Assembly (NCBI GenBank): GCA_035221665.1
Contig: CM069148.1
Location: 14,322,001-14,386,000, forward strand
Direction of reading: 5' to 3'
Origin: Okamejei kenojei
Taxonomy: Eukaryota
Length of the DNA: 64,000 nucleotides
The position numbers were made by a program, and so were the translations under genes. Each line of letters begins with the position of its first letter. Position 1 is the first letter of the stretch. Positions 1 through 36,848 of this stretch are shown piece after piece. The notes under the pieces are model-generated. The model was not told the DNA's origin and searched no databases. It saw only the letters and a program-made list of their open reading frames with translations.

Positions 1-135
1 AATTCTTATTGACTTTAGTTTTTAGTTTACAGTGTGGACCATGCCGACCAGCGATCACCTGTACAATAATTCTGTCCTTCACACTAGGGACACCAGGCCT
101 CAGAATAAAATGCTGTGCCTTTAGAAATCGATGTA

Positions 136-550
136 AACATAGAAACATAGATAATAGGTGCAGGAGGAGGCCATTCAGCCCTTCGAGCCAACACCGCCAT
201 TCATTGTGATCATGGCTGATCATCCCCATTCAATAACCCGTGTCTGCCCTCTCCCCATATCCCTTGATTCAACCAGCCCCTAGAGCTCTATCTTCTAAAG
301 TTGTTGGACAACTTGTTCTATTTGATCTTCCGTTTGTGCACGTCGAGTTGATTGCATTAGTCGAAACAGGGCGGACCACCTGAAGGTTGCGATCTTCCAC
401 CCCAGCTCTATCTAACTCTCTCTTAAATCCATCCAGTGACTTGGCCTCCACTGTCCTCTGTGGCAGGGAATTCCACAAATTCACAACTCTCTGGGTGAAA
501 AAGTTTTTTCTCACCTCAGTCTTTTAAACGGCCTCCCCTTTATTCTTTAT
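136..550 (-). mobile_element. CR1/HER1-type LINE 3' fragment
   Basis: Encodes MRKNFFTQRVVNLWNSLPQ (CR1 ORF2 C-terminus) with a (TTTCTATG)n tail; interrupted by copy A. Confidence 0.8.
294..403 (-). mobile_element. Short retroposon with HDV-like ribozyme head, copy A (shortened 3' module)
   Basis: TSD agctctatct at 284-293 and 404-413; begins GGGGTGGAAGATCGCAACC; inserted in a CR1 3' fragment. Confidence 0.8.
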
Positions 551-1611
551 TATGTACATTGCACCTACGAACCTGCACGCCTTTGGAGTGTGGGAGGAAG
601 CCGGAGTAAACCCACGGCGTGTCAGTGAGTACATACAAACTCTGTACAAACAGCATCTGTAGTCAGGGTAGAAGCTGATGATGGGACCCGCTGGCAATGT
701 AAGGCAGCAACCCGACCATGCCGCACCTTTTAAGCTTGCAGATATTGAGATGGCACAGGAGAATCCCAGGAATGGATCCCGTGAAACTCCCGTGCTCTCC
801 CTCCGTCGGTCAGGGTGTGAGGTGCGGGAGACACAAGCGAGTGCTGACGCTGGAATCTCGAACTTGAGCAAAAAAGGAAGTGGAATCTTGAGCAAATCAG
901 AAAGTGCTGGAGGAACTCAACAGGTCAGGCAGCATCTGTGGAGGGAATGGACAGACATTCCAGATCGGGGTCCTTCTTCAGACCCGTTGAGTTACTCCAG
1001 CATAGTGTGTCTTTTCTTATGTCTAGGTTATGTTTCTGTGCGTTGCCTGTCATTGTGCCCATGATGCTGCTGCGAGCAAGATTCTCATTGTATCTCACCG
1101 CACATGCGTATACGACAATAAACTTCACTTAAAATGCACCATATGCTGAATTTTACAGTCATACCTAACACTTTCCTTAATGTGCCAAAGTTTTTAACAC
1201 ACCTAATAACACAGGTAATGGCTCCTCCCAGTCAGAGGTAAACCATGAAAAGTACAGAGGTTACTCTGCCACTCCTTATTTAAACTGTGGTAACCACACT
1301 CCCGTTGCCATGTTCAGTAAACCTTCTCCATTAGCTGCTCCACAAAACACTCTATGGTCAGTGTAATGTCATAGAGTTATAGGTGGTATATGGAAAAAGG
1401 CCCTTCTGCTCAATTTGTCCACACCTATCAACACATCCCATCTTCACCAGTCCTACCTGCCTGCGTTTGGCCCATATCCCTCTAAACCTGTCCAATCCTT
1501 GCACCTGTCCAAATGTTTCTTAAACGTTGCGAAACGACCTGCATCAACTGCCTCCTCCAGCAGCTCGTTCCATACACCCACCACCCTCTGAGTGAAAAGG
1601 TTACCCCTCAA

Positions 1612-2595
1612 ATCATATTGATGATTTGGACGAGGGAATTGAATGCAACATCTTCAAGTTTGCGGATGACACTAAACTGTGGGGTAGTGTTAGCGAGTGA
1701 GGAGGAAGCTAGGAGGCTGCAAGGTGACTTGGATAGGCTGGGAGAGTGGGAAAATGCATGGCAGGTGCAGTATAATGTGGATAGATGTGAGGTTATCCAC
1801 TTTGGTGGCAAAAACAGGAAAGTAGACTATTATCTTAATGGTGGCAAATTAGGAAAAGGGGAGATGCAACAAGACCTGGGTGTCATTGTACACCAATCAT
1901 TGAAAGTAGGCAGGTGCAGCAGGCAGCAGGCAGTGAAGAAAGGAAATGGTATGTTAGCATTCATAGCGAAAGGATTTGAGTATAGGAGCAGGGAGGTTCT
2001 ACTGCAGTTGTACAGGGTTTTGGTGAGACCACACCTGGAGTATTGCGTGCAGTTTTGGTCTCCAAATCTGAGAAAAGACATTCTTGCCATAGGGAGGGTA
2101 CAGAGAAGGTTCACCAGACTGATTCCTGGGATGGCAGGACTTTCATATGAGGAAAGACTGGATAGACTTGGCTTGTACTCGCTAGAATTTGGAAGACTGA
2201 GGGGGATCTTATAGAAACTTACAAAATTCTTAAGGGGTTGGATAGGCTAGATGCAGGAAGATTGTTCCCGATGTTGGGGAGGTCCAGAACAAGGGGTCAC
2301 AATCTAAGGATAAGGGGGAATTCCTTTAGGACCGAGATGAGGAAAACATTTTTCACACTGAGAGTGGTGAGTCTCTGGAATTATCTGCCACAGAAGGTAG
2401 TTGAGGCCAGTTCATTGGCTATATTTAAGAGGGAGTTAGATGTGGCCCTTGTGGCTAAAGGGATCAGGGGGTATGGAGAGAAGGCAGGTACAGGATACCA
2501 AGTTGGATGATCAGCCATGGTCATATTGAATGGCGGTGCAGGCTCGAAGGGCCGAATGGCCTACTACTGCACCTATTTTCTATGTTTCTATGTTC
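1612..2595 (+). mobile_element. CR1/HER1-type LINE, 5'-truncated (RT C-terminal half, frameshifted)
   Basis: SKFADD and LVRPHLEYCVQFWSP motifs, 3' UTR hairpin, (TTTCTATG)n tail. Confidence 0.9.
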
Positions 2596-3835
2596 CTATT
2601 AAATCTTTCCCCCCTCACAAACCGATGTCCTCTGGTTCTCTATTCTCCTACTCTGGGCAAGAGACTCTGTGCATTTACCAGATGTATTCCTCTCATGATT
2701 TTGTACATCTCTGTAAGATCGCCACTCGTCCTCCTGCGCTCCAAGGAATAGAGTCCTAGCCTGCTCAATCTTCCCTATAGCTCAGGCCCTCGAGTCCTGG
2801 CAACGTCCTCGTAAATCTTCTCAGTACCCGTTCCAGCTTTACAACATCGTTCCTATAACGTGGTGCCCAGAACTGATCACAATATGCTAAATGCGGCCAC
2901 ACCAACCTCTTATACAACTGCAACGTGACCTCCCAACTTCTTTTCTTTTTTAATATCATATTTTTATTAGAAGTAATGTACAGCAGTATAAACCAAGAAT
3001 AACATAATACATTTCAAGTACAACTTCTTGTTTTAAAATTTAATAATAGAAAAGTAGCAGAAGCAAGAAAAAGAGAAAGGGAGAAAGTTAGGTAAGGTAG
3101 TGATATTGATAGTTCGTGAAAAAGTAGAAAGAAAGAGCCCATAAAGATGTAAAGCACGAGAAAGAGAAAAAAGAAAAAATAGAAAATATAAAGAAAATAA
3201 AAGGGATGTACCTGCTTCATACACAACCCTCACCCGGTTCTGCAACAATTAATTTCCAGAGTTATGTTGCACCTTATGCTTGTAATAAGTCGATACAGGG
3301 AGACCAAATCTTTAAGAATTGGTCAGATTTGCCTGCTAGAACGAATCTCATGTCTTCGAGGTGTAACATTTCAGACATATTTGAAATCCACATTTTAAGC
3401 GTTGGTGCGGGTGCATTTTTTCCAGAATTTGAGTACAAGTTTGTTTGCCGTTATTAAGCCATAGTGAAGGAAACTCTTTTGGAACAAAGTCAGCTCAAAG
3501 CCGACTTCCATTGTTCCAGAGATAATCAGTTCTACGTTGGGTTTCAGTTTCATTTTAAATAATTTAGTGAACATTTCAAAAATTTCATTCTAACATTTTT
3601 GGAGTTTTATGCAAAAAGACAAATGACCTCCCAACTTCTATACCCAATATTGTCCCTGATGAAGGCCACTGTGCCAAAAACCTTTGTGACCACCCTATCT
3701 ACCTGTGGTGCCACTTTTAACAATCTATGTAGGCTGCAGTCCTAGATCCCTTTCCTCTACAACACTGCCTAGAGCCCCATCATTCAGCATGTAGGTCCTG
3801 CCCGTGTTAGAGTTCCCAAAAAGTACCACCTCACA
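2596..3835 (-). mobile_element. Older CR1 fragment interrupted by an L1-clade insertion
   Basis: LYKRLVWPHLAYCDQFWAP on the minus strand; sequence resumes after 3624. Confidence 0.7.
2942..3623 (-). mobile_element. L1-clade LINE 3' end, 5'-truncated
   Basis: 16-bp TSD tgacctcccaacttct at 2926-2941 and 3624-3639; AATAAA and A-rich tail on minus; degenerate ORF2 C-terminus (KLVLKFWKNAPAPTLKMW). Confidence 0.75.
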
Positions 3836-10289: not shown

Positions 10290-11040
10290 GTAAGATCCTT
10301 TCTGCTTGGTTATCACTGATTTTGTAACTAGGCAGTGGGTTGGCTGTGCGTTACTTCAGCACGTCAGTGCAGGCACTGGGCAATGTTAGACGTCTCTATG
10401 TTGTCCTTGGTTACAAAAATAAAAGTCACACAGATCTGTCCGTGCCCCAATTCATTGAGCTATCCGAGGGGTTCGTGAACACAATCCGTCACACACATGG
10501 CAGGCAGGAAACCTACAGTTTTAGTCTAATCTTCTAGTCTGAAGAAGGGTCTCGACCCGAAACATTGCCCATTCCTTCTCTCCAGAGATGCTGCCTGCCC
10601 CGCTGAGTTACTCCAGCATTTTGTGTCTTCCTTTAGTTTTAGCCTAATTTTAGTTTTAGAGACACAGCACGGAAACAGGCCCTTCGACCCATCGAGTCCA
10701 CGTCGACCATCGATCACCCGCTCACACAATTTCTCTGTTATTCTACTTCCTCACTCCCTCCCTACACATTAGGGGAGACCTACAACGACCCATTTACATG
10801 TATTTGACCCACATCCCTCTAAACCTTTCATATTCATGTCGCTGTCCAAAATGTCTTTTAAAAGTTGTTATTGTACATGAACCGACTATCTCTTCTGGCA
10901 GCGCGTTCCACACACCCGCCACCCTCTGTGTGAAAAGGTCACCCCTCAGGTTCCTATTAAATCTTTCCTCTCTCGTCTTACTCTCTTGTTCTTGATTCCT
11001 CCACCCTGAGAATAGGAGTGTGTGCGTTCACCCTGTCTAT

Positions 11041-11177
11041 GGCGGTGGAAGATTGCAACCTTCACGTGGTCCGCCCTGTTTCGACTAATGCAATCAACTC
11101 GACGCGCACAAACGGAAGATCAAATAGAACAAGTTGTCCAACAACTTTAGGCTGTGCACGCCACACGAAAGAAGAAG
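11041..11177 (+). mobile_element. Short retroposon with HDV-like ribozyme head, copy B
   Basis: 11-bp TSD accctgtctat at 11030-11040 and 11178-11188; GAAGAAG tail; inserted in a CR1 fragment. Confidence 0.85.
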
Positions 11178-12110: not shown

Positions 12111-12750
12111 GGTCGGATTTTACCCGATAAAATGCTTTCTATGGCGAAGTTCCAAGGTAAGATGGTAGTCACGTGGAACTAAGGTGCATGTGAACGTCCT
12201 GTACAGGGTGGTGGATCTCTGGGATTCTCTATCCTGGAGGATTGTGGACGCTGGATCACAGGAGGGATTTAAAGATTTTATTTTTTAATTAATGAACTGA
12301 GGGTCACGGCGAACGTGCAGAAAAGGAGAGTGAGGAACGATCGTGTTGAACGGCAGATTAAGAAAACCAAACTGCTTGAGGAACTCAGTGGGTCAGGCAC
12401 CATCTGTGGAGGGATGGGCAGACAGCATTTGGGGTCGGGACCCTTGGTCAGACAGAAGGTTCCCATCCTAATATATCACCTGCACAGCATGACAGGCCCG
12501 AGGGGCTGAATGGTCTAGTGCTGCTCCTATATCTGATAATCTAGCCTCTAGCATTTGAGATTGTTCCTATTATCGCGCAGACCACAGCAAATTGTCACCT
12601 GATCTACTTTCTTTCTTGAATGGTTAAGAATCCAGATCGATAATAATGATCTCAAAAGGGCGGTAAGTGCTGGAGTAACTCAGTGGGTCAGACAGCATCT
12701 CTGGAGAAAACAAATAGATAATGTTTTGGGTCGAGACCCATCTCCAGTTT

Positions 12751-12892
12751 CTTCTTCTTCTCGCGTATGGCGTGCACAGCCTACAGTTGTCGGACAACTT
12801 GTTCTATTTGATCTTATTTGATTGTGCGCGCCTTTGCTGATTGCATTTGACGAAACAGGGCGGACCACGTGAAGGTTGCAATCTCCCACCCC
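12751..12892 (-). mobile_element. Short retroposon with HDV-like ribozyme head, copy C
   Basis: TSD atctccagttt at 12740-12750 and 12893-12903 (3-nt C-run ambiguity); (GAA)n tail. Confidence 0.85.
12839..12892 (-). ncRNA. Predicted minimal HDV-like (nested double pseudoknot) ribozyme, best-preserved copy
   Basis: GGGGTGG(P1)-GA-GATTGCA(P2)-ACC(P3)-TTCACGT(L3)-GGT(P3')-CCGCCCT(P1')-GTTTCGT-CAAA(J4/2, catalytic C)-TGCAATC(P2'). Other copies at 350-403(-), 11042-11095(+) and 24103-24156(+). Confidence 0.75.
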
Positions 12893-13697
12893 ATCTCCAG
12901 TTTGAAGAAGGGTCTCGACCCAAAGCGTCACCTATCGATGTTCTCCAGAGATGCTGCTTGACCTGCAGGGTTACTCCAGAGCTTTCTGTCCTTTTGTGTA
13001 ATAATCAGTATCTGCAGCTCCTCGTCTCTACGTAATAATTATCTCAAATTAGTCGCAGGCTAGCCCAGTTTGGCTTAGATTGGAGATACAGTGTGGAAAC
13101 AGGCCGTCAGAGTCCCAGCCAAAGAGCGACCCCCCCCCCTACACCAGCACGATCCTGCACACTGGGGGGACAAATAACAATCTTTACAAAAGGCAATTAA
13201 CCTACAAAGCTGTACGTGTTTGGACTGTGGGAAGAAACTGGAGCACCAGGGAAAACCCACGTGGTCACGGGGAGAACGTACAGCGAGCGCTCGTAGTCAG
13301 GATGGAACCCGTGTCTCTGGCGCTGTAAGGCAGCAATTCTACCACTGTGCCAACCTGCCGGCAGGTTGCTCAGACGTTGGTGTTTATGCCCCTTACCAGT
13401 CTCACCCCTCCCTCCTTATCTCACCCAGCCCTTAAAAACATTGATGTGCCTATTAATGAGTCTGGCACCCTTATTTGAAGTGTTGTAGCTTGTGAACTTT
13501 AGTCTCCTCAGGCAGGAGAAATCCACAGACACACAGTCTGAAGATGGACACAAAATGCTGGAGTGACTCAGCGGGGCAGGCAGCATCTCTGGAGAGAAGG
13601 AACGGGTGGCGTTCAGGTCGAGACCCTTCTTTAAACCAGCGCCCGCAGTTCCTTCCTGCACACAGTCTGAGGAAATGTCGTTATGGTTTTCTTTCAG

Positions 13698-17282: not shown

Positions 17283-18642
17283 CAGTGGCTTGCAAAAGTA
17301 TTCATACCCCTTGAACTTTTCCACATTTTGTCACGTTACAACCACAAACGTAAATGTATTTTATTGGGATTTTATGTGATAGACCAACACAAAGTGGCGC
17401 ATAATTGTGAAGTGGAAGGAAAATGATACATGGTTTTCAAATTTTTGTACAAATAAAAAACTGAAAAGTGTGGCGTGCAAAAGTATTCAGCCCCCTTTAC
17501 TCTGATACCCCTAAATAAAATCCAGTGCAACCAATTGCCTTCAGAAGTCACCTAATTAGTAAATAGAGTCCACTTGTGTGCAATCTAATCTCTGTATAAA
17601 TAACATTCTGTGATGGCCTCAGAGGTTTGTTAGAGAACATTAGTGAACAAACAGCATCATGAAGCCCAAGGAACACACCAGACAGGTCTGGGATAATGTT
17701 CTGGAGAAGTTTAAAGCAGGGTTAGGTTATTAAAAAAATCCCAAGCTTTGAGCATCTCACGGAGCACTGTTCAATCCATCATCTGAAAATGGAAAGAGTA
17801 TGGCACAACTGCAAACCTACCAAGACATGGCCGTCCACCTAAACTGACAGGCTGGGCAAGGAGAGCATTGATCAGAGAAGCAGCCAAGCGGCCCATGGTA
17901 ACTCTGGAGGAGCTGCAGAGATCCACAGCTCAGGTGGGAGAATCTGTCCACAGGACAACTATTAGTCGTGCACTCCACAAATCGGGCCTTTATGGAAGAG
18001 TGGCAAGAAGAAAGCCATTGTTGAAACAAAGCCATAAGAAGTCCCGTTTGCAGTTTGCCACAAGCCATATGGGGGACACAGAAAACATGTGGAGGAAGGT
18101 GCTCTGGTCTGATAAGACCAAACTTGAAGATTTTGGCCTAAATGCAAAACGCTATGTGTGGTGGAAATTTGATATTAGATCAAAGCATATTCATGTGTTA
18201 GAATGGCCCAGTCAGTCCAGACCTAAATCCAATTGAGAATCTCTGGTAATACTTGAAAATTGCTGTTCACAGACGCTCTCCATCCAATCTGACTGAGCTT
18301 GAGCTATTTTGCAATGAAGAATGGGCAAAAATGCCAGTCTCTAGATGTGCAAAGCTGGTAGAGACATACCCCAAAAGACTTGCAGCTGTAATTGCAGCGA
18401 AAGGTGGTTCTACAAAGTATTGACTCAGGGGAGCTGAATACTTTTGCACGCCACACTTTTCAGTTTTTTTATTTGTAATAAAATTTGGAAACCATGTATA
18501 ATTTTCCTTCCACTTCACAATTATGCACCACTTTGTGTTGGTCTATCACATAAAATCCCAATAAAATACATTTACGTTTGTGGTTGTAACGTGACAGAAA
18601 GTGGAAAAGTTCAAGGGGTATGAAAACTTTTGCAAGCCACTG
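17283..18642 (+). mobile_element. Tc1-like DNA transposon, defective with internal deletion
   Basis: TA-CAGTGGCTTG...CAAGCCACTG-TA ends; ~210-bp TIRs; transposase relic 17659-18423 (ARRKPLL, WSD, LEWPSQ) with stops and a deletion near 18165 that removes the middle of the DDE domain. Confidence 0.92.
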
Positions 18643-23813: not shown

Positions 23814-23911
23814 ATCTGTACATGTTCCAATACTTCTTGATCGTAGTGCCCACTGAGATCAGCACCTACAAGTTCTCCACAAGCACCCACCAATTCTCGG
23901 TCACGGAGCAC
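23814..23911 (+). CDS. ERGIC2: ERGIC2-like coding exon 10
   Basis: tttcacAG acceptor; NLYMFQYFLIVVPTEISTYKFSTSTHQFSVTEH; GTGAG donor; 98 nt. Confidence 0.95.
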
Positions 23912-24101
23912 GTGAGCAAAATGTTAATGGTCTTCACCATCTCACACCTCAGCGCGTTGGGAAGCGTCACGCACTCTCATCCAGGGCTTCTTTCATTTGG
24001 CGCACAGTGCCATTCAGCACCAGAGCCCAAGAGTGAGACCTGGGTCACTGTGCTGGAATGGGTGCATGGTCAAGTTTCAGAGTCACATTTATCTAACCTG
24101 T

Positions 24102-24237
24102 GGGGGCGGGAGATTGCAACCTTCACGTGGTCAACCCTGTTTCGACAAATGCAATCAACCCGGCGTGCACAATCAAATAAGATCAAATAGAACAAGTTGT
24201 CCGACAACTTTAGGCTGTGCACGCCTAGAAGAAGATG
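24102..24237 (+). mobile_element. Short retroposon with HDV-like ribozyme head, copy D
   Basis: 11-bp TSD atctaacctgt at 24091-24101 and 24238-24248; GAAGAAGATG tail. Confidence 0.85.
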
Positions 24238-26071
24238 ATCTAACCTGTCCCTTCAACATTGGTCTGAACTGTATACAGGTCGTTCTGCTATAACCCATAT
24301 TTCCATAAATTACTATTAAAACACAAAGTACTTGTGCAATAAAAACCAGGGTAAGTGCTCAACCAAGAAAACCAAGCCCAAAGCAGTATCTAAACTGCTT
24401 AAACACACTTCTGCTAAGGACAATAACCAACTCTATATGCAATACGCTATCTACAGGTTAACAAGCACATAGAAACTCATCATGTAGATGCAAGTATATC
24501 ATTGGGGTTATCAAGTGGGCACCTCCCTTCACTGGTGTTTCGTTGTTAGGCCCATGACACTTCGGGAAGGCTCAGTTAGGATTGGACATAACGTGATTGA
24601 TGAATGAGGGAACTCTCGCTGTATTACGCAGTTTGTATTAGTTTGATTGTGAGCTGGAGACTCACTTTAAAGTTACTTGGAAATTGCTAAGCAGAAAATA
24701 AACATCTCTAGGGAGAGTCTAGGGTTATTGAAACCTGAAACCACAAGAATGCTGGAAAGGCCCAGTGCATAAGCAGGAGAACGAAAAGCTGGATTAACAT
24801 TACCGATCCATAACCTTACTGCTGAACATACCAGAACACAAACTGTATACAAACAGCATATCTAGTTGCATCACAGCTTGGTTTGAGAAGAGCTCTGCCC
24901 AAGACTACAATAAACTGCAGAGAGTTGTGGATGTAGCCCAGTCCATCACACAGACCAGACTCCCCAGACCAGACTCCATCTACACTTCATGCTACCTCAG
25001 GAAAGCAGCCATAATCAAGGATTTTTTTCCCTTTTCTCCCCTCCCCAGTCAGGCAAAAGATACAAAAGCTTGATAGAACATAAATCCAGACCCAGAAACA
25101 CCTTCCCCTCTGTTATCTTCTGCATGGTTCTCCCATAAGATAGGGCGTAGTCCGAATCTTCCAACATAACTCACAGCCCACATTGGATTTTTTACACTGG
25201 GACTGTAATCCTACTGTGTTGAAAAGCTATATTCTGCACTCTGGTATTTTTCTCCTTTCTCTACCTCCTGTACTTGCGTCTGGTTTGATTGTACTCATTA
25301 TTAGTATTATCAAATGTATTTGGCAAGCACACAAACAAAAGAGCTTTTCACTGCATCTCGGTGTACGTGGCAACTAAACAAATTATAACTTAAATTCAAT
25401 TAAATCCTGAAGGGTGCAGCATGTCCATAGAATTGAAGCGCGGTTTGTCAAGCTTAGTGCAAGAATGCTATAGACTCATAGTTCAAGAGTGGGAGTGGAA
25501 ATGATATGAAAGCTTGTCATGCACTGCAAGAGACGGAATTTGGTATACAATGTAATGTGGGCAGCCCCATGTTAAGGCCATTTGGCTGATGGAAATTCAC
25601 AACCAGAATAGAACACACAAATCACAGGAGGGAAATAGCAAAGGAGGGAAATATCAAAGACTTTAAGATGAGATGGGCAAAATTTAAAAGAGATGTGTGG
25701 GACATGTTTGGTTTTTACAGAGAACGGTGGGTGCCTGGAAAGCGCTGCCAGGGGTGCTGGTGGAGGCAAATCCAATAGTGAGATTTAAGAGGCTTTTAGA
25801 TAGGCACATGCATGCAGGGAATGGAGGGGTGTGGATCACATCCAGGTAGAGATTAATTTAACTTGGCATCATGCTCAGCATGGATGTAGTGGACAACACA
25901 TGATTACAATCGAGCCATTTACAATGTATAGATACATGATAAGGGAATAACAATTAGTGCAAGGTAAAGCCAGCAAAGTCCGATCAAGAATAGTCTGAGG
26001 GCCACCATAGAGGTAGATAGTAGTTCAACAGGTCGGAATTGTCAAGCTTTTGGTCTATTGTATAATTGCAG

Positions 26072-26234
26072 GAAAAAAGTCTCAAGGGAATGATTAGGAA
26101 GCACGAGGTGCCAGGAATCCTGGTGAAATATGACCTCAGCTGTCTTAAGATTTTGATCTGCGAGGAAGGAATGTCCCTCAGCCGGTTCCTAATTCGCCTC
26201 TGCGGTGTCGTAGGTGGGATATTTTCCACTGCAG
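26072..26234 (+). CDS. ERGIC2: ERGIC2-like coding exon 11 (start of TM2)
   Basis: ttgcAG acceptor; EKSLKGMIRKHEVPGILVKYDLSCLKILICEEGMSLSRFLIRLCGVVGGIFSTAG; GTAGGT donor; 163 nt. Confidence 0.95.
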
Positions 26235-35223: not shown

Positions 35224-36848
35224 CAGTGCCCTTCATAATGTTTGGGACAAAGACCCATCATTTATTTATTTGCCTCTGTACTCCACAATTTGAGATATGT
35301 AATAGAAAAAAAAAATCACATGTGGTTAAAGTGCACATTGTCAGATTTTAATAAGGGGCATTTTTACACATTTTGGTTTCACCATGTAGAAATGACAGCA
35401 GTATTTACCATAATGTTTGGGACACATGGCTACACAGGCATTTGTAACTCCTCAGGTGTGTTTAATTGCCTCCTTAATGCAGGTATAAAAGAGCTCTCAG
35501 CACCTAGTCTTTCCTCCAGTCTTTCCATCACCTTTGGAAACTTGTATTGCTGTTTATCAACATGAGGACCAAAGTTGCGGCAATGAAAGTCAAAGAAGAC
35601 ATTATGACACTGAGAAACAAGAATAAAACTGTTAGAGACACCAGCCAAACCTTGGGCTTATCACAATCAACTGTTGGAACATCATTAAGAAGAAAGAGAG
35701 CACTGGTGAGCTTACTGATCACAAAAGGATTGGCAGGCCAAGGAAGACCTCCACAGCTGATGATAGAAGAATTATCTCTATAATAACGAAAAATCCCCAA
35801 ACACCTGTCCGACAGATCAGAAACACGCTTCAAGAGTCAGGTGTGGGTTTGTCAATGACCACTGTCCGCAGAAGATTTCATGAACAGAAATACAGAGGCT
35901 GCACTGCAAGATGCAAACCACTGGTTAGCCGCGAAAATAGGATGGCCGGGTTACAGTTTGCCAAGAAGTACTTAAAAGAGCAACCACAGTTCTGGAAAAA
36001 GGTCTTGTGGACAGATGAGCTGAAGATTAGCTTATATCAGAGTGATGGCAAGAGCAAAGTATGGAGGAGAGAAGAAACTGCCAAAGATCCAAAGCATACC
36101 ACCTCATCTGTGAAACATGGTGGTGGGAGTGTTATGGCCTGGACATGTATGGCTGCTGAAGATACTGCCTCACTTATCTTGATTGATGATACAATGCTGT
36201 TGGCAGTATATAGCGAATTCTGAAGTGTATAGACACATCCTATCTGCTCAAGTTCAAACAAGTGCCTCAAAATTTATTGGCTGGCGGTTCATTCTACAGC
36301 AAAACAATGATCCCAAACATACTGCTAAAGCAACAACGGAGTTTTTCAAAGCTAAAAAATGGTCAATTCTTGAGTGGCCAAGTGAATCACCCGATCTGAA
36401 CCCAATTGAGCGTGCCTTTTATATGCCGAAGAGAAATCGGAAGGGGACTAGCCCCCAAAACAAGCATAAGCTAAAGATGGCTGCAATACAGGCCTGGCAG
36501 AGCATCACCAGAGAAGACCCCCAGCAACAGATTATGTCCACGAATCGCAGACTTCAAGCAGTCATTGCATGCAAAGAATATGCAACAAAATACTAAACAA
36601 GACTACTTTCATTTACATTACATTGCTGTGTCCCAAACATTATGGCGCCCTGAAATGGGGGAACTATGTATAAACACTGCTGTCATTTCTACATGGCGAA
36701 ATCAAAACATATAAAAATGGCCTTTATTAAAATCTGACATTGTGCACTTTCACCACATGTGATTTTTTTCAATTACATATCTCAAATTGTGGAGTACAGA
36801 GGCAAATAAATAAATGAGTCTTTGTCCCAACCATTATGGAGGGCACTG
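35224..36848 (+). mobile_element. Tc1-like DNA transposon, near full-length, IR/DR-type TIRs, frameshifted transposase
   Basis: TA-CAGTGCCC...GGGCACTG-TA ends; ~200-220 bp TIRs with CATAATGTTTGGGACA repeated at both ends; transposase relic 35562-36596 (WTDE, KHGGGSVM.W, QQNNDPKH, SPDLNPIE). Confidence 0.93.

Follow-up and report, generated by a model that had tools for sequence, protein, structure and literature searches.

A 135-nt internally deleted LINE derivative headed by a predicted minimal HDV-like ribozyme in Okamejei kenojei

Results

Four copies of a short retroposed element lie within 64 kb

The window, a stretch of 64,000 nucleotides from contig CM069148.1 of Okamejei kenojei, contains four copies (A to D) of a short element that opens with a predicted self-cleaving ribozyme. 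All four were recovered at the positions reported in the original prediction and show 87-97% identity to copy B wherever they align with it. No fifth copy was detected in the window when copies B and D were used as BLAST queries, only those four rising above noise. The target site duplications (TSDs) attributed to the copies are exact, comprising 10 bp in A and 11 bp in each of B, C and D, to which 3 G of microhomology are added in C. The GAA-type tail ascribed to every copy is missing from copy A, which ends ~25 bases early; the absence of (GAA)n suggests priming inside the element. Copies B and D carry one extra G ahead of the first ribozyme nucleotide (G1). The elements and neighboring features of the window are as follows.

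294..403 (-): copy A, 3'-truncated, mismatched in P2 and altered at C24; TSD 404-413 and 284-293
11030..11040 (+): 5' TSD copy of copy B, 11 bp
11041..11177 (+): copy B, a subfamily B mini-element, with a C2.C35 mismatch in P1
11178..11188 (+): 3' TSD copy of copy B, 11 bp
12751..12892 (-): copy C; TSD 12893-12903 and 12740-12750; ribozyme 12892-12839, catalytic-position C 12849; the sole window copy with an intact core
17787-18236 and 35636-36596 (+): remnants of Tc1-type transposases (HTH_Tnp_Tc3_2, DDE_3)
23814-23911 and 26066-26233 (+): a pair of exons, belonging to an ERGIC-type gene, that flank the intron holding copy D
24102..24237 (+): copy D, G1 at 24103, with two adjacent P1 mismatches; TSD 24091-24101 and 24238-24248

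The ribozyme core is thus intact in one of the four window copies (copy C), the mismatches of A, B and D being read from the sequence. Copy D is sense-oriented inside an intron of the ERGIC-type gene (PF07970); a search for ERGIC_N gave no match. Its P1 is broken, and a single case of a sense copy within an intron proves nothing. The DNA around copy A (window 294-403) presumably corresponds to the 3' part of a CR1-type LINE, which it resembles. A comparison of the window with Rfam yielded 12 matches at E<=1, all below gathering and none a ribozyme, and ARAGORN detected no tRNA in the window. With neither a tRNA-type Rfam match nor an ARAGORN tRNA, the claim that the element has no tRNA head holds. 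No reverse transcriptase (RT) ORF of a partner LINE was present among 32 of the 34 window ORFs of at least 120 aa that were scanned.

The element joins the two ends of a ~3.1-kb LINE

A LINE sharing the 3' end of the element was searched for, matches with ribozyme bases upstream being excluded, and 1,156 matches were obtained. Eight of the 100 matches listed had a different common upstream sequence, and walking 5' from those eight led to an element of ~3.1 kb. Its near-complete copies, L138 and L136, share the initial 54 nt and the tail with the mini-element and are flanked by short TSDs, so an autonomous-type LINE with both ends in common, which the original prediction proposed to look for, does exist. 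A consensus extending far upstream of the G-run had been named as evidence against the proposal; the 5' end does not extend beyond that run, and 17 of 30 fetched 5'-region LINE copies could be aligned by their ribozyme, the DNA upstream of it being unrelated.

The LINE ORF spans bases 107 to 3088 (994 codons with the stop) and is colinear with an intact 1019-aa homolog containing an apurinic endonuclease-type domain (APE) and RT, at 63-77% identity (consensus and better copy). RVT_1 was detected on two LINE copies and APE, weakly (E 0.051), on a damaged copy. Every LINE copy seen is broken, with a median of 5% substitutions from the consensus (126 alignments), and no intact copy of the partner LINE was found. 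As lower bounds, the 3' part of the LINE is represented by at least 291 candidates and the 5' part by at least 33-81. Matches of the LINE consensus to the window were restricted to the four mini-element copies. Some LINE copies (L115, L117, L121 and L130) carry an inverted, ribozyme-bearing 5' piece, as in twin-priming insertions.

Copy B aligns with the LINE over its first 73 and last 37 bases, and copies C and D align up to about base 81, the 5' part kept in the mini-elements therefore measuring 73-81 nt. Copy B is divided into three parts.

11042..11113 (+): part derived from the LINE 5' end, comprising the ribozyme and ~19 nt of 5' UTR
11114..11140 (+): junction segment of ~27 bases, not in the LINE as such
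11141..11177 (+): part derived from the LINE 3' end, comprising the last ORF codons, the stop, a ~27-nt 3' UTR and the (GAA)n tail

In the junction segment 8 nt of the LINE 5' UTR are repeated, and a hairpin is predicted to form between this segment and the LINE 3' part. As the mini-element consists of the first ~73 and last ~37 bases of the LINE, it is an internally deleted element and not a true SINE. A SINE in the strict sense takes its head from a tRNA, 5S, 7SL or snRNA, and the head found here is the LINE's own 5' end. The description as SINE-like accordingly gives way to that of a short internally deleted LINE derivative like NARTc, RIME and the R2 SIDEs. The extreme 5' and 3' ends of one LINE are combined in 135 nt without an ORF, and the copies are dispersed, tailed and flanked by TSDs. 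We are practically certain that the mini-element is a bipartite non-autonomous retrotransposon (SIDE) that arose by internal deletion of the ~3.1-kb Vingi-like LINE.

Internal deletion occurred in other forms as well. In a second, independent family (58 matches, e.g. L072-L074) the LINE 5' end is joined directly to the last ~30 bases, and the single copies L069-L071 have further, different junctions; the whole fold is retained in the copies read of this family and in L069-L071. Subfamily B mini-elements were also observed inside copies of the parent LINE (L122:873-1006 and L128:1777-1910), indicating that B was still mobile after those LINE insertions.

The partner LINE resembles Vingi elements

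RNase H was absent from all 32 aligned homologs and from the C-terminal piece of the LINE, and no 2A motif was recognized by eye in its N-terminus. RNase H is present in three more distant elements (L259, L269 and L270), which are long single-ORF Ingi-like elements with APE, RT, RNase H and N-terminal PHD/C1-like fingers; L259 and L270 also contain a 2A motif. In an RT tree (FastTree) built without a host outgroup, without three proteins and without L235 and L260, whose RT matches were short, the LINE groups (support 0.94) with RNase H-less elements of ~1000 aa and apart from L259, L268, L269 and L270; the tree held no named Vingi or RTE reference rows. Searches for relatives of the LINE in viral contigs found none, a PDB search gave nothing beyond weak R2 matches, and a cluster look-up and the ESM Atlas returned no clade name.

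Vingi elements are described as encoding 993 aa in a single ORF that has no 2A (PMC3708506) and as being devoid of RNase H (PMC13708176). The 994-codon span and its colinear homolog correspond to such a single ORF of ~993 aa with APE followed by RT. On ORF length, the lack of RNase H and 2A and the split from the RNase H elements in the tree, the single-ORF APE+RT partner is called Vingi-like here.

The original prediction had left the partner as possibly Vingi/Ingi or RTE, and only the Vingi/Ingi-like half of that suggestion is supported. RTE elements, too, are single-ORF elements that lack RNase H and have both ribozymes and bipartite derivatives; the (GAA)n tail and the single ORF are equally compatible with them, and the tree had no RTE rows to decide the matter. 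Against this, the 994 codons of the ORF, stop included, match the 993 aa of Vingi (PMC3708506). The most distant profile relatives are RNase H- and 2A-bearing Ingi-like elements. The C-terminus of the LINE moreover contains a C-x-C...H...C motif, a trait of the I/Ingi group. That the partner belongs to the RTE clade instead of Vingi is, in our judgment, very improbable.

The 54-nt head has an HDV-like fold without P4

The proposed mapping of the head onto the HDV/CPEB3 fold proved correct helix by helix, with G1 of copy B at 11042 and the catalytic-position C at 11085.

11042..11095 (+): HDV-like fold of copy B, 54 nt, from the sequence, from the same map obtained with a descriptor on copy C and from a covariance model hit
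11042-48/11071-77: P1
11049-50: J1/2
11051-57/11089-95: P2
11058-60/11068-70: P3
11061-67: L3
11078: G37
11079-84: 6-nt loop replacing P4
11085-88: J4/2, with the catalytic-position C at 11085

A strict descriptor of HDV ribozymes, purpose-written for this analysis, matched the window once, in copy C; the controls, 200 kb of genomic DNA from elsewhere and 30 shuffled versions of the window, gave no match. The nested double pseudoknot of P1, P2, P3 and P1.1 is present, P1.1 consisting of one C-G pair and a U.U as in CPEB3 (PMC4836649). The G1.Y pair, U20 and G25 in L3 and C22-G37, which are listed as features of HDV-like ribozymes (PMC6326823), all occur in the LINE, B and D majority sequences. 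These three sequences differ at four ribozyme positions (5, 8, 32 and 45), located in J1/2, at the second base of J4/2 and in the P1 pair 5-32 (U5-A32 to U5.G32 to C5-G32), and all four differences are compatible with the fold. The P4 stem is absent, the spacing from P1 to the catalytic C being 7 nt compared with 16-44 in relatives.

For scoring of individual copies, 71 BLAST hits in 59 sequences were collected; four partial or gapped hits were dropped and 67 copies were scored, which are mostly top hits and hence biased to good copies. A TSD, mostly of 10-15 bp, was recognized in 56 of the 67, and in 43 of these 56 it ends at most 1 nt from G1. The core was intact in 36 copies and failed in 31, figures that carry the same bias. 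J4/2 reads C-N-A-A in 64 of 67 copies (31 CUAA, 20 CGAA, 13 CAAA) and thus provides the catalytic C. CUAA deviates at position 2 from the published C-R-R-A, yet it recurs in related LINEs.

Related LINEs carry covarying heads

With a profile of the 32 homologs, 75 metagenome loci were obtained, of which 29 reach the N-terminal part of the ORF. The fold was detected just upstream of the ORF in 11 of the 29 (L255 and L256 being one locus): in eight by a relaxed descriptor, with scores of 23-36 compared with at most 9.6 on the opposite strand, in L201 and L216 by eye, and in L219 by a covariance model out of sample (E 5e-5). No convincing fold was found in the other 18, of which five lack the 5' end, three are RNase H elements and ten, with upstream DNA, are unexplained. 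Several of the heads are unusual. Those at L201:953-1021, L202:303-371 and L220:2722-2788 resemble the Rfam HDV-F-prausnitzii family at 30-42 bits, below its gathering threshold of 44. L203 has, upstream of position 600, an HDV-like head that by eye appears to contain a long insertion inside the core, and the weak model hit at L219:2619-2698 marks a degenerate or expanded HDV-like head.

Three own and nine foreign sequences, chosen because they fold, were aligned with MAFFT blind to structure. In this 12-sequence alignment 92.6% of cells pair and two-sided changes occur at 13 of 19 pairs, a result reached by none of 500 shuffles; slid controls gave 37-44% pairing. The covariation figure is inflated, because the aligned sequences were selected for folding. 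Strand, position and the invariant catalytic bases, however, are not free to arise from that selection. The heads of these LINEs are a median of 52% alike among 45 pairs, and the fold of the nearest relative (L265) agrees at 29 of 37 core positions and differs by compensatory changes. The HDV-like fold put forward in the original prediction is thereby backed by covariation among related LINEs (13/19 pairs), and the head is almost certainly homologous to HDV-like ribozymes.

These data also bear on the idea of a SINE transcribed by Pol III, whose head would be a degenerate tRNA-like sequence and whose pseudoknot would be incidental. The element is short, GAA-tailed and of high copy number, as such SINEs are, and its positions 37-45 may presumably be taken as loosely like a B box. 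It has no tRNA, 5S or 7SL match, though, the same head opens a 3.1-kb protein-coding LINE, and the fold covaries across related LINEs. The LINE head and the covariation already largely refute a Pol III origin, which we consider scarcely credible.

Copy number and age in the genome

In the 2.76-Gb genome (1,141 contigs), a 35-nt core of the mini-element had 5,031 exact matches and 19,361 matches at up to 3 mismatches, and the reversed control had none. The match ratio implies ~20,000 mini-element copies, one per 142 kb, with about 4% decay. They exceed the parent LINE by roughly two orders of magnitude, and both look mostly dead at about 4-5% decay. From the ~4% decay we estimate that several thousand ribozymes are probably still intact. 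The four copies in 64 kb amount to about nine times the genome mean (Poisson P=0.001), and 20 stretches of 10 kb from elsewhere held no copies where 1.4 were expected; the window is therefore locally rich in mini-elements. The family was also present in contigs from sequencing runs under three organism labels.

Predicted cleavage of intact copies and transcription

Intact copies probably self-cleave, and a core with a one-pair P1.1 and no P4 could be slow. Transcripts were inspected in one poly(A) RNA-seq run, in which 885 reads, from ~6% of the run, were aligned. No pile-up of read starts at G1 was listed for this run, and 245 reads (among the four rows listed) continue upstream past G1, which is mild evidence against frequent cutting of host transcripts. 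Of these 885 reads, no more than 35 reached 99% identity with the two copies used as references; a poly(A) library would keep uncut survivors, and fragmentation blurs 5' ends. First mates on the plus strand compared with the minus strand were 1.2-1.8 times as frequent for the first copy and 2.0-2.9 times for the second, which would amount to an antisense excess in a library prepared with dUTP.

The reads crossing G1 and the missing start peak would suit a vestigial ribozyme that became too slow on losing P4, the first ~75 nt being kept as an internal Pol II promoter starting at G1. The retained LINE 5' part (73-81 nt) is also close in length to Pr77 of L1Tc/NARTc, which acts as promoter and ribozyme (PMC4035085). 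A vestigial head, on the other hand, does not sit well with majority-sequence differences that all spare pairings and catalytic positions, or with a nearest relative (L265) whose changes are compensatory, and ribozymes without P4 are reported as active in vitro (bioRxiv 10.1101/2023.06.13.544163). Promoter and ribozyme roles are not exclusive and may coexist. We regard a vestigial ribozyme, the main rival reading, as unlikely, and prefer a head that is still capable of cleavage in intact copies.

A related LINE carries a CPEB3-type ribozyme

One of the metagenome loci, L255, contains a complete LINE that lacks RNase H, is flanked by a 14-bp TSD (3084 and 6261) and ends in an (ATC)n tail. Its 5' ribozyme (L255:3099-3172, +; also seen as L256:2199-2272 in a second assembly of the locus) scores 55.6 bits on the Rfam CPEB3 model RF00622, for which the gathering threshold is 35, and agrees with the Rfam CPEB3 consensus in 35 of its 37 leading positions, those of P1 and P2 among them. 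P1 and P2 vary freely among these LINEs, and only 18-27 of 37-39 positions are shared between L255 and nine other LINE ribozymes. RF00622 gave no match to the window ribozyme. The heads of L201 and L220 agree at 37 of 39 positions although their RTs belong to separate subclades, a hint that 5' ends have been exchanged; heads can thus be exchanged or stay conserved.

Discussion

Relation to known systems

Ribozyme-headed, internally deleted LINE derivatives have been published, NARTc, RIME and the SIDERs in trypanosomatids (PMC4035085) and the R2 SIDEs (PMC3414825), and the original prediction overstated the novelty of the principle in this respect. NARTc with L1Tc, RIME with ingi and the SIDERs are closely comparable, being short deleted derivatives of Ingi-clade LINEs that share the first ~77 nt (PMC4035085). 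Those ~77 nt contain an HDV-like ribozyme that cleaves at the 5' end of the element; its counterpart here is predicted (PMC4035085). The mini-element differs from the trypanosomatid elements in its animal host, in a partner without RNase H (which L1Tc has), in the lack of P4, in the (GAA)n tail and in its ~20,000 copies. In Drosophila, R2 SIDEs and R2/R1 hybrid SIDEs similarly combine a 5' HDV-like ribozyme with a LINE 3' end and are mobilized in trans, but R2 targets a specific site in rDNA and SIDEs derived from it are rare, whereas the present family is dispersed, abundant and tied to an APE-type LINE (PMC3414825). Internal deletions of Vingi-1_EE and the Vingi-derived SINE2-1_ACar, compared here by description only, are likewise bipartite, non-autonomous and Vingi-derived (PMC5786205).

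In its fold the head is closest to the minimal HDV-like ribozymes (drz-Mtgn-1, theta), which also have a short loop for P4 and the catalytic C first in J4/2. Those are found in metagenomes and gut phages, often beside tRNAs, whereas here the fold heads an animal retrotransposon (bioRxiv 10.1101/2023.06.13.544163). Theta ribozymes adjoin the 3' end of a phage tRNA; the window has no tRNA and the context is a eukaryotic retrotransposon. The minimal-ribozyme study reports no eukaryotic match in human, mouse and protist genomes (bioRxiv 10.1101/2023.06.13.544163), and HDV-like ribozymes are on record in lamprey, lancelet and fish. In the full-text literature searched, neither a Vingi ribozyme nor the mini-element family was found. 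The family, its stripped-down fold and the CPEB3-matching relative appear undescribed, a novelty that is limited to this literature.

Proposed mode of mobilization

By analogy with the biology of L1Tc/NARTc and the R2 SIDEs, we infer a cut-then-mobilize route. The mini-element would keep the two cis parts needed by the LINE protein and RNA. Where a host read-through or intronic transcript runs across a copy, the predicted ribozyme most likely cuts just before G1, with C44 as general acid, which would free a unit-length RNA and perhaps protect its uncapped end. Judging by the shared ends and the TSDs, the APE-RT protein most likely binds the RNA through its 3' ~37 nt and (GAA)n. The LINE protein would then prime target-primed reverse transcription at a nick, leaving 9-16 bp duplications, and amplification to ~20,000 copies would have proceeded together with the parent LINE. 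We think it probable that this explanation is correct as a whole, that is, a SIDE derived from a Vingi-like LINE, with a self-cutting head and mobilization by the LINE protein.

Origin of the CPEB3 ribozyme and implications

The window ribozyme shares with CPEB3 the G1.U36 pair, U20/G25 and a P1.1 of a single C-G pair plus U.U (PMC4836649, PMC8233481), and also the L3 of the Rfam consensus and the same numbering to position 38. CPEB3, unlike the window ribozyme, has a P4 stem, and it is a single-copy intronic motif (PMC4836649, PMC8233481). On the sequence match of L255, the mammalian CPEB3 ribozyme seems on balance to have descended from a Vingi-like 5' end, with the caution that this is one locus and that L255 lies in a different subclade from the partner LINE. 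In a study of ancestral CPEB3 ribozymes the words origin, transpos- and retro- are absent (PMC8233481), and the passages covered of a review on HDV origin contain no link between CPEB3 and LINEs (PMC8256844). A Vingi trace (X12_LINE) is included for the human genome in a Repbase list (PMC5753468).

Taken together, the Vingi clade may carry 5' HDV-like ribozymes. In one lineage the ribozyme would have shrunk to an active 54-nt form without P4 and spread to ~20,000 sites; at several thousand of these it would probably have stayed intact and could cut host pre-mRNAs. The CPEB3 ribozyme would be a stranded Vingi 5' end. For this combined proposal we see the chances as evenly balanced. Through the match of L255, the question of where the CPEB3 ribozyme came from can be put to a direct test. 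Minimal HDV-like ribozymes without P4, until now either associated with phage tRNAs or lacking a known source, are given a probable eukaryotic job by the family, which also offers, with thousands of variants, a natural 54-nt test case for such ribozymes.
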